Shown here one piece after another: positions 925 through 1,797 of a stretch of DNA of 39,937 bases. A program made the position numbers and the translations under genes. The DNA is from Escherichia phage T7, in sequence record NC_001604.1; one strand, given 5' to 3'. The stretch's first letter is position 1. Each line of letters starts with the position of its first letter. The notes beneath the pieces were generated by a model. It did no database searches, had not been told where the DNA came from, and saw only the letters and a program-made list of their open reading frames with translations.

Positions 925-1278
925 ATGGCTATGTCTAACATGACTTACAACAACGTTTTCGACCACGCTTACGAAATGCTGAAAGAAAACATCCGTTATG
1001 ATGACATCCGTGACACTGATGACCTGCACGATGCTATTCACATGGCTGCCGATAATGCAGTTCCGCACTACTACGCTGACATCTTTAGCGTAATGGCAAG
1101 TGAGGGCATTGACCTTGAGTTCGAAGACTCTGGTCTGATGCCTGACACCAAGGACGTAATCCGCATCCTGCAAGCGCGTATCTATGAGCAATTAACGATT
1201 GACCTCTGGGAAGACGCAGAAGACTTGCTCAATGAATACTTGGAGGAAGTCGAGGAGTACGAGGAGGATGAAGAGTAA
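925..1278 (+). CDS. ocr: Ocr (gene 0.3), DNA-mimic anti-restriction protein
   Basis: 117-aa ORF, very acidic, C-terminus [11 protein letters not shown]; recognised sequence. Confidence 0.97.
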
Positions 1279-1433
1279 TGTCTACTACCAACGTGCAATA
1301 CGGTCTGACCGCTCAAACTGTACTTTTCTATAGCGACATGGTGCGCTGTGGCTTTAACTGGTCACTCGCAATGGCACAGCTCAAAGAACTGTACGAAAAC
1401 AACAAGGCAATAGCTTTAGAATCTGCTGAGTGA
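1278..1433 (+). CDS. 0.4: gene 0.4 small early protein (reported FtsZ inhibitor)
   Basis: ATG overlaps ocr stop (TAATG at 1276-1280); stop TGA 1431-1433; below ORF-track cutoff. Confidence 0.8.
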   Translation: MSTTNVQYGLTAQTVLFYSDMVRCGFNWSLAMAQLKELYENNKAIALESAE

Positions 1434-1436
1434 TAG

Positions 1437-1475
1437 ACTCAAGGTCGCTCCTAGCGAGTGGCCTTTATGATTATC
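1437..1475 (+). promoter_or_regulatory. RNase III processing hairpin R0.5
   Basis: ACTCAAGGTCGCTCCTAGCGAGTGGCCTTTATGATT, member of the recurring hairpin family. Confidence 0.7.
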
Positions 1476-1495
1476 ACTTTACTTATGAGGGAGTA

Positions 1496-1639
1496 ATGTA
1501 TATGCTTACTATCGGTCTACTCACCGCTCTAGGTCTAGCTGTAGGTGCATCCTTTGGGAAGGCTTTAGGTGTAGCTGTAGGTTCCTACTTTACCGCTTGC
1601 ATCATCATAGGAATCATCAAAGGGGCACTACGCAAATGA
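1496..1639 (+). CDS. 0.5: gene 0.5, small hydrophobic protein of unknown function
   Basis: ATG 1496 after GAGGGAG; product MYMLTIGLLTALGLAVGASFGKALGVAVGSYFTACIIIGIIKGALRK. Confidence 0.75.
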   Translation: MYMLTIGLLTALGLAVGASFGKALGVAVGSYFTACIIIGIIKGALRK

Positions 1640-1797
1640 TGAAGCACTACGTTATGCCAATCCACACGTCCAACGGGGCAACCGTATGTACACCTGATGG
1701 GTTCGCAATGAAACAACGAATCGAACGCCTTAAGCGTGAACTCCGCATTAACCGCAAGATTAACAAGATAGGTTCCGGCTATGACAGAACGCACTGA
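1636..1797 (+). CDS. 0.6: gene 0.6A (0.6B by frameshift into the frame ending 1972)
   Basis: ATG 1636 overlapping 0.5 stop; ORF-track frame to 1797; downstream ORF 1781-1972 in another frame. Confidence 0.75.
   Translation: MMKHYVMPIHTSNGATVCTPDGFAMKQRIERLKRELRINRKINKIGSGYDRTH

Follow-up and report, generated by a model that had tools for sequence, protein, structure and literature searches.

Small early genes of phage T7: a probable separate 72-residue gene '0.65' behind gene 0.6A, and gp0.5 as a putative glycine-zipper membrane peptide

The cluster of short early genes between ocr and the kinase gene of Escherichia phage T7 occupies positions 1278-1797 of the window, as we call the whole stretch of DNA analysed here, whose 39,937 bp are the length of the T7 reference. 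It is a long-known cluster, annotated since 1981-83, and not a new one. The comparison with resequenced T7 and related phages reported here mainly concerns the second reading frame that follows gene 0.6, named '0.65' at first and '0.6B' later. In the full explanation, which we consider probable, the cluster would encode four independent small early proteins, gp0.4, gp0.5, gp0.6A and a 72-residue '0.65' product. The last of these would be a separate basic, helical protein translated from its own ATG at 1781, and the end of '0.6B' at 1972 would stem from the 1983 reference sequence lacking an A after 1896. The features directly involved, in window coordinates and with open reading frame abbreviated as ORF, are:

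1636-1797, plus strand: gene 0.6A, 53 residues, MreB inhibitor (ORF list; V01127)
1781-1972, plus strand: second-frame ORF in its window version, 63 residues, '0.65' in V01127 and later '0.6B' (ORF list; V01127); its C-terminal end, to 1972, reads ...LKPRNSPHLNRH
1781-1998, plus strand: second-frame ORF with an extra A after 1896, 72 residues, ending at TAA 1996-1998 (resequenced T7, relatives)
1894-1900, plus strand: site of the one-nucleotide (nt) difference, GGACAAG in the window and GGAACAAG in resequenced T7 (alignment; PMC2680503)

Resequenced T7 records contain one base more than the window, in every record that was aligned or matched, and the alignment places the extra A after 1896, where GGAACAAG stands in place of GGACAAG; the deposited sequence of T7.1 also carries it. 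According to PMC2680503, T7+ and V01146 differ in this extra base alone. When it is included, the ORF starting at ATG 1781 bypasses the TAG at 1970-1972 and continues in frame 1 of the window until the TAA at 1996-1998. The 72-residue version is full-length in 53 of the 60 phage records that contain the ORF, among them phages of Serratia, Cedecea, Salmonella, Shigella and Kluyvera (80-97% identity), and a large protein database holds 33 clusters of this protein, nearly all of 71-72 residues, whereas the window version matches the relatives over residues 1-35 only. Downstream of the insertion/deletion (indel) site, substitutions are distributed as 15/4/46 over codon positions 1, 2 and 3 of the 72-residue frame, and the AlphaFold2 (AF2) model of this protein (predicted local distance difference test, pLDDT, 87.5) has a helix from residue 20 to 71 that runs unbroken across the indel site. 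Taking into account the full-length conservation, the codon bias and the helix across the indel, a frame ending at 1972, as proposed in the sequence-only reading (an earlier annotation made from the letters alone), is a property of the reference sequence and not of resequenced T7, which, like the relatives, ends at window position 1998. Judging from these comparisons, the second-frame C-terminus after codon 38 in the window is an artefact of the one-nucleotide difference.

The absence of the A goes back either to an error in sequencing or to a mutation that the stock used in 1983 carried. It has to be considered, in the latter case, that a real frameshift mutation was present in the T7 stock sequenced in 1981-83, so that the 63-residue ORF to 1972 existed there. 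The T7 laboratory variant LR745707 carries a version shortened to 45 residues, indicating that laboratory stocks tolerate damage to the second-frame ORF, and the whole gene cluster is dispensable for T7 according to the literature. Nevertheless, the A is found in all the independently resequenced T7 records aligned or matched, which come from several laboratories, as well as in T7.1, and the published comparison of T7+ with V01146 reports no other difference (PMC2680503), making a stock mutation rather unlikely. The conclusion that a 72-residue protein is conserved does not change under either reading. The reference sequence has a further peculiarity, in that the 0.6A frame is open from its UGA (1795-1797) to 1998 and could pass for a readthrough extension; this frame is open over 1798-1998 because the A is missing.

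The preferred reading, in which the 72-residue ORF is a gene of its own, is based on the way in which it is combined with its upstream neighbour in other phages. The comparison drew on 80 IMG/VR loci surrounding 0.7 kinase homologues, among which homologues of each small protein were located. The ATG at 1781, which has a 17-nt overlap with the end of 0.6A and lies 14 nt upstream of the 0.6A stop, is kept at every locus examined and in 23 of 23 aligned homologues. In T3-type early regions (a Kvp1-like contig, JSS1 and two metagenomic contigs), the 72-residue ORF follows an unrelated 65-residue protein with an N-terminal hydrophobic segment, which has only its last approximately 8 codons in common with 0.6A, and the ATG of the ORF is preceded by a strong Shine-Dalgarno sequence (SD), AAGGUAGGU (-8.9 kcal/mol); the SD of the NC-A type reaches -5.6 kcal/mol. 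In phages of the NC-A / ESh1 type, 0.6A (45 residues) stops at a UGA and, 12 nt later, the ATG of the 72-residue ORF follows in the same frame. Since both ORFs share one frame with a stop between them, a +1 shift cannot fuse them. Conversely, eight relatives have an intact 45-residue 0.6A directly before the ribosome-binding site (RBS) of the next gene, without any 72-residue ORF, the ninth relative lacking this ORF being L012, whose 0.6A is cut off after 25 residues, and stand-alone 0.6A homologues exist in phi92-like and other large myoviruses. The frame offset between the upstream gene and the 72-residue ORF is therefore not a constant relationship, being +1 in T7-type and T3-type junctions and zero, with a stop, in NC-A and ESh1. 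Altogether, '0.65' has a conserved ATG, an RBS (weak in T7), purifying selection in its own frame and occurrences without a 0.6A partner, as an independent gene would.

A natural fusion points in the same direction. In Yersinia phage YpsP-G (locus L093, NC_047940, 701-1505), the RNA polymerase gene, from codon 15 onward, continues in frame from codons 1-35 of the 72-residue ORF. The deletion responsible spans T7 positions ~1886 to ~3208, with the microhomology TCGAAC, and removes gene 0.7 together with the polymerase's own RBS and ATG, so that start codons upstream of polymerase residue 36 are found only in the segment derived from the 72-residue ORF. Thus, in this phage, an essential protein depends on translation of the 72-residue frame.

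RefSeq offers a different model, in which ribosomes shift by +1 (or -2) shortly before 0.6A ends (join 1636..1794, 1796..) and produce gp0.6B as a fusion, which constitutes the main second-frame product; the fusion peptide implied is IGSGYDRTHDGLK. The sequence-only reading similarly let gene 0.6 continue into the frame ending at 1972. Passing from the 0.6A frame to the second frame would require the shift to occur within 1772-1797 (8 codons), the sole stretch open in both frames, and this stretch holds no known +1 or -1 motif, neither CUU UGA C preceded at 3 nt by an SD nor a slippery heptamer of the form X XXY YYZ. In favour of the model, the T7.1 record carries the wording 'believed to involve a translational frameshift', which is repeated in the ESh1 annotation, phrog_8393 is a 111-position profile of the fusion, and the upstream tail ...ACN CAY TGA is kept in T7-type and T3-type junctions. 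Nevertheless, the overlap codons themselves vary (GAC AGA, GTT GCA, GTC GCA), as does the stop (TGA or TAA), and the model does not accommodate the universally conserved ATG, the NC-A and ESh1 arrangement, the presence of the 72-residue ORF behind an unrelated gene or the existence of the 0.6A core alone in most relatives and in phi92-type myoviruses. A frameshift as the source of the main second-frame product is consequently considered improbable, and the comparison favours a separate 72-residue gene with its own ATG. The proposal resembles the -1 frameshift of T7 gene 10A/10B and the +1 frameshift of the prfB type in that a frame change close to the end of a short ORF upstream would give a second product. 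In contrast to these systems, a slippery heptamer, a CUU UGA C and an SD at 3 nt upstream are all missing from the end of 0.6A, the frame relation of 0.6A to the 72-residue ORF is not conserved, and the downstream ORF possesses a conserved ATG of its own.

Several points weigh against a separate gene '0.65'. The T7-type SD at 1781, AAGAUAGGU, is weak (-3.4 kcal/mol), 38% of random 20-mers being as good, which would also suit a frameshift. The upstream gene ends in ~24 nt that T7-type and T3-type junctions both conserve, and a shift site could in principle lie within them. Dunn and Studier replaced the '0.65' of 1981 by '0.6B', reportedly on the basis of protein-gel data. A literature search for proteomic or ribosome-profiling data on the second-frame ORF found none, and the YpsP-G junction is known in one sequenced isolate only.

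Taking into account the weak SD of T7, initiation at 1781 in a separate gene '0.65' would probably rely on coupling to the termination of 0.6A 14 nt downstream. In termination-reinitiation of the MS2 lysis gene type, terminating ribosomes can reinitiate at a close upstream ATG with a weak SD, and the ATG at 1781 resembles such coupled phage genes (ATGA or TAATG junctions; MS2 lysis gene) both in its position upstream of the stop and in its weak SD. It differs from them in that its 17-nt overlap exceeds the usual 1-4 nt, and coupling at 1781 is a proposal.

The 72-residue protein is basic (isoelectric point 10.7) and helical. It gave no match in Pfam or NCBIfam, and a Foldseek search of its model against PDB returned nothing (best E=8.9). 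A relationship of the ORF to the basic C-terminal region of gp0.7 was considered and ruled out (E=1.9). Separately, locus L091 (KY084243, 1585-1984) has a T3-type 0.6 with the same junction ATG and 17-nt overlap, and there the ATG opens a 71-residue ORF similar to the C-terminal domain of the gp0.7 kinase, with no full kinase gene being present.

The second product to which the analysis adds is gp0.5, for which two features are relevant:

1496-1639, plus strand: gene 0.5, 47 residues as annotated, 45 residues from ATG 1502 (ORF list; V01127)
1514, plus strand: start site of the minor E. coli promoter B (regulatory feature in PP384398; PMC11863960)

The description of gp0.5 in the sequence-only reading, as an almost wholly hydrophobic peptide with no assigned function, was borne out. 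The peptide quoted there is found in the translation, whose grand average of hydropathy (GRAVY) is 1.38, with hydropathy above zero in every window of the profile, and the product has been called 'an uncharacterized class I gene' with a putative transmembrane helix (PMC12798971), its function being 'poorly understood' (PMC11863960). It has also been reported that the gp0.5 change V26I swept T7 populations evolved in microgravity (PMC12798971).

Five glycines of gp0.5 (G13, G17, G21, G25 and G29) follow one another at i/i+4 spacing, forming a glycine zipper of G-x3 repeats. A run of five such repeats appeared in 99 of 100,000 composition-preserving shuffles (P ~1e-3), and, among 24 aligned family members, no variation is seen at G17 and G29 and next to none at G13 and G25; repeated GxxxG is therefore found on one face of a hydrophobic helix. 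The pattern (G/A/S)xxxGxxxG, which gp0.5 shares, is said to have been described by Kim et al. (PNAS, 2005) as typical of transmembrane helices that pack into oligomers by a glycine zipper. The difference from those families is that gp0.5 has no sequence homology to any bacterial or eukaryotic one, and its membrane location, oligomerisation and any pore activity would be putative. A literature search for experimental data on its insertion, homo-oligomerisation or pore formation found none. Thus, gp0.5 (~45 residues, from ATG 1502) may insert in the inner membrane and, via its G-x3-G face, self-associate or pack against a host membrane protein; both insertion and oligomerisation are inferred only, which counts against this part of the proposal, as does the fact that our own Pfam scan found no match and that AF2 gives one long helix and not a hairpin.

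The AF2 model of gp0.5, a single helix over residues 2-45 (pLDDT 79), does not in itself settle whether the peptide is a hairpin or one long helix. A two-helix hairpin, with a first transmembrane segment at ~3-20, a turn at G21-K22, a second segment at ~23-41 and both ends cytoplasmic, is a fair possibility but is considered somewhat less likely than not. The hydrophobic run of ~38 residues is over-long for a single membrane span, hydropathy dips at residues 17-25, the basic C-terminal tail KGALRK agrees with the positive-inside rule, and the variation at position 22 (K, E or Q), together with the co-occurrence of G21W with K22E, would suit an exposed turn. On the other side, the predicted helix is continuous from 2 to 45, without a break, and the five glycines form one continuous face across the supposed turn.

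Regarding the start of gene 0.5, Met3 (ATG 1502) is invariant, whereas the annotated ATG at 1496 is replaced by ATA or ACC in loci L015 and L016, and many homologues begin at the second Met. Moreover, the SD GGAG lies 8 nt upstream of 1502 and merely 2 nt from 1496. Since Met3 is invariant and the SD is better spaced, ATG 1502 is taken as the probable real start in place of 1496. A start at GTG 1430, which would give a 69-residue 'predicted protein', was ruled out, as it has no SD (free energy +0.2) and the frame passes through the R0.5 hairpin; GU071091 and several database proteins extend gene 0.5 to this GTG, probably as a gene-caller artefact. The start site of promoter B at 1514 lies inside gene 0.5, so transcripts from B cannot encode gp0.5, contradicting the wording 'promoter B controlling gp0.5' found in PMC11863960.

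The gp0.5 family is narrow, with 35 clusters when grouped at 90% identity and 9 representatives when grouped at 50%, located on T7-like phage contigs wherever source or context was checked. A profile search of 1.84 billion representatives recovered T7-like phage peptides and one spurious repeat protein, with no bacterial relatives. A Pfam family for gp0.5 exists (PF26813, Gp0_5) and is precomputed on all 35 homologues; our hmmscan of gp0.5 against Pfam-A gave no match to it, for which the filters or the library copy may be the cause.

The mere presence of small ORFs is no proof of genes, since short ORFs are frequent by chance: the mechanical ORF list contains 42 ORFs of at least 20 residues overlapping 800-3300 (2.5 kb). 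Coding was assessed by counting every variable site once and assigning it to codon positions 1, 2 and 3. The counts were 4/5/17 for gp0.4 (P=8e-4), 12/4/21 for gp0.5 (P=3e-3), 8/7/31 for the gp0.6A core (P=2e-6), 11/9/26 for the N half of the second-frame ORF (P=1e-3) and, as unique variable sites, 9/4/20 for its C half (P=1e-3). Because variable sites concentrate at third codon positions, all four are, according to their substitution patterns, protein-coding and under purifying selection. It is scarcely credible that one or more of the short ORFs, above all 0.5 or the second frame, should be a chance ORF; the number of ORFs within 2.5 kb and the failure of our scans to obtain a Pfam, NCBIfam or structural match would allow it, but each ORF has a significant third-position excess and is conserved at full length in many phages, with start and stop codons kept. 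At the minus-strand ORFs listed (1585-1794 and 1779-2021), the codon-position bias agrees with the plus-strand frames. Scans of the five products against Pfam, NCBIfam and PHROGs gave no functional family, the matching PHROGs families being of unknown function, and an Rfam scan of 800-3300 with E up to 1 gave no matches.

A tblastn search of an annotated phage collection found 0.4 in 160 records, 0.5 in 48, 0.6A in 210 and the second-frame ORF in 60. The small genes combine differently among phages and hence behave as mosaic accessory cassettes. In contig L077 (1390-2011), homologues of 0.5 and 0.6A are located upstream of an ocr-like gene, an order unlike that of T7.

As for gp0.6A itself, it inhibits MreB according to the literature, and its functional unit would be a core of 45 residues. 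The T7 protein consists of this core, which is kept in relatives, and an 8-residue tail, GSGYDRTH, that is part of the flank of the downstream cassette. The motif MxKHYVMPIHTxNGATVCTPDGFAMKQRIERLKRELRxNRK is recovered in the alignment with relatives and with gp228 of phi92 (48 residues; L090), a homologue of gp0.6A, and in most relatives 0.6A stops at ...RKLNNI* (45 residues), directly 5' of the kinase RBS. Homologues with 50-55% identity are found, among the matches listed, in myoviruses of ~115-150 kb infecting E. coli, Klebsiella and Aeromonas, to which the summary adds Dickeya phages. The gp0.6A family thus extends far beyond T7-like phages. The window gene is identical to the published T7 gp0.6 MreB inhibitor (Molshanski-Mor et al. 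2014), and the comparison adds to it the 45-residue core common to many phages and the origin of the last 8 residues in the overlap with the downstream cassette. The 0.6A homologue of L012 (1622-1699) stops prematurely, 25 codons in, and is apparently a natural pseudogene of the MreB inhibitor.

The single gene name '0.6' covers two different proteins. The T3-type 'gene 0.6' (L021, L087-L089, L091, L092) encodes 65-66 residues with an N-terminal hydrophobic helix and is unrelated to T7 0.6A. Only the last ~8 codons, which overlap the start of the 72-residue ORF, are common to both (NKVGIFYVATH in the T3-type and NKIGSGYDRTH in T7).

The remaining features of the region are:

925-1278, plus strand: gene 0.3 (ocr) (annotated in T7 records)
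1278-1433, plus strand: gene 0.4, 51 residues, FtsZ inhibitor (ORF list; V01127, AY264774)
1428-1479, plus strand: RNase III processing hairpin R0.5, cut near 1469 (stem-loop RSL_R0.5 of the T7.1 record, mapped to the window)
2021-3100, plus strand: gene 0.7, kinase (annotated in T7 records)

Over positions 1200-2050 the window shows 100% identity with V01127, the original record of the left end of T7, and 99.9% with more than 25 T7 genomes of later date, and the coding sequences are found at the same coordinates in V01127 and later T7 records, in the order ocr - 0.4 - R0.5 - 0.5 - 0.6A - (0.65/0.6B) - 0.7 kinase - gene 1. The names and coordinates given to 0.4, 0.5 and 0.6 in the sequence-only reading match the ORF list and the V01127 annotation. 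Its phrase 'three short overlapping genes' holds in part: 0.5 and 0.6A do overlap, by 4 nt (ATGA), whereas 0.4 and 0.5 do not, being separated by 62-68 nt with the hairpin R0.5 in the gap. The ATG of gene 0.4 in turn overlaps the stop codon of 0.3 by 1 nt (TAATG).

The gp0.4 gene of the window is identical to that of the FtsZ inhibitor of T7 (Kiro et al. 2013; PF26807), of which it is the type protein, no difference being observed, and PF26807 (Phage_T7_GP04) is recorded on a gp0.4 homologue. A passage of PMC5624674, citing Kiro 2013 and Molshanski-Mor 2014, states that T7 encodes separate inhibitors of FtsZ (Gp0.4) and MreB (Gp0.6). A 2026 study (PMC13423816) describes how Gp0.4 sequesters FtsZ monomers and how the Gp0.4-FtsZ complex triggers the defence protein CapRel, and the gp0.6-MreB interaction is restated in a 2026 preprint (bioRxiv 10.64898/2026.09.14.751387). 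The assignment of gp0.4 to FtsZ and of gp0.6 to MreB in the earlier annotation agrees with all three sources. By binding FtsZ monomers, gp0.4 blocks cell division, as the literature shows.

The 5' arm of R0.5 spans the last 6 nt of gene 0.4, and the hairpin folds at -25 kcal/mol (z-score -2.9), with none of 200 shuffles folding as well. The cluster belongs to the non-essential class I (early) genes, which the RNA polymerase of the host transcribes, and RNase III cuts the transcript at R0.5. As a result of this cut, 0.4 is carried on the 0.3 mRNA, and 0.5, 0.6 and 0.7 on the next processed mRNA.

In relation to the consequences of these observations, it has to be noted that the genes, the two host targets and the status of gp0.5 are already in the literature and in Pfam, and that the cluster as such adds nothing new; the practical value lies in an annotation correction, of minor interest. 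None of the resequenced T7 stocks and relatives examined has the C-terminus of RefSeq 0.6B (after second-frame codon 38) or the TAG at 1970-1972, and this error matters for proteomics databases, recoding and knock-outs. The amber-ended fusion model of 111 residues has spread to PHROGs (phrog_8393) and to automated annotations (ESh1). In a recoded T7, the TAG of 'gp0.6B' was changed to TAA (PMC12814771); in the conserved 72-residue frame, this change at 1970-1972 is no swap of stop codons and instead replaces Ala65 by Thr. Since Thr occurs naturally at position 65, the replacement is probably harmless.

With moderate confidence, we favour the conclusion that the T7 reference gene model has been wrong since 1983, '0.65' being an independent 72-residue gene (1781-1998), and that gp0.5 is an oligomerising glycine-zipper peptide of the inner membrane. 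The 72-residue protein and gp0.5 are the two remaining uncharacterised products of the host-takeover region of T7 and, if this conclusion is true, both would be host-takeover effectors adjoining the FtsZ and MreB inhibitors.

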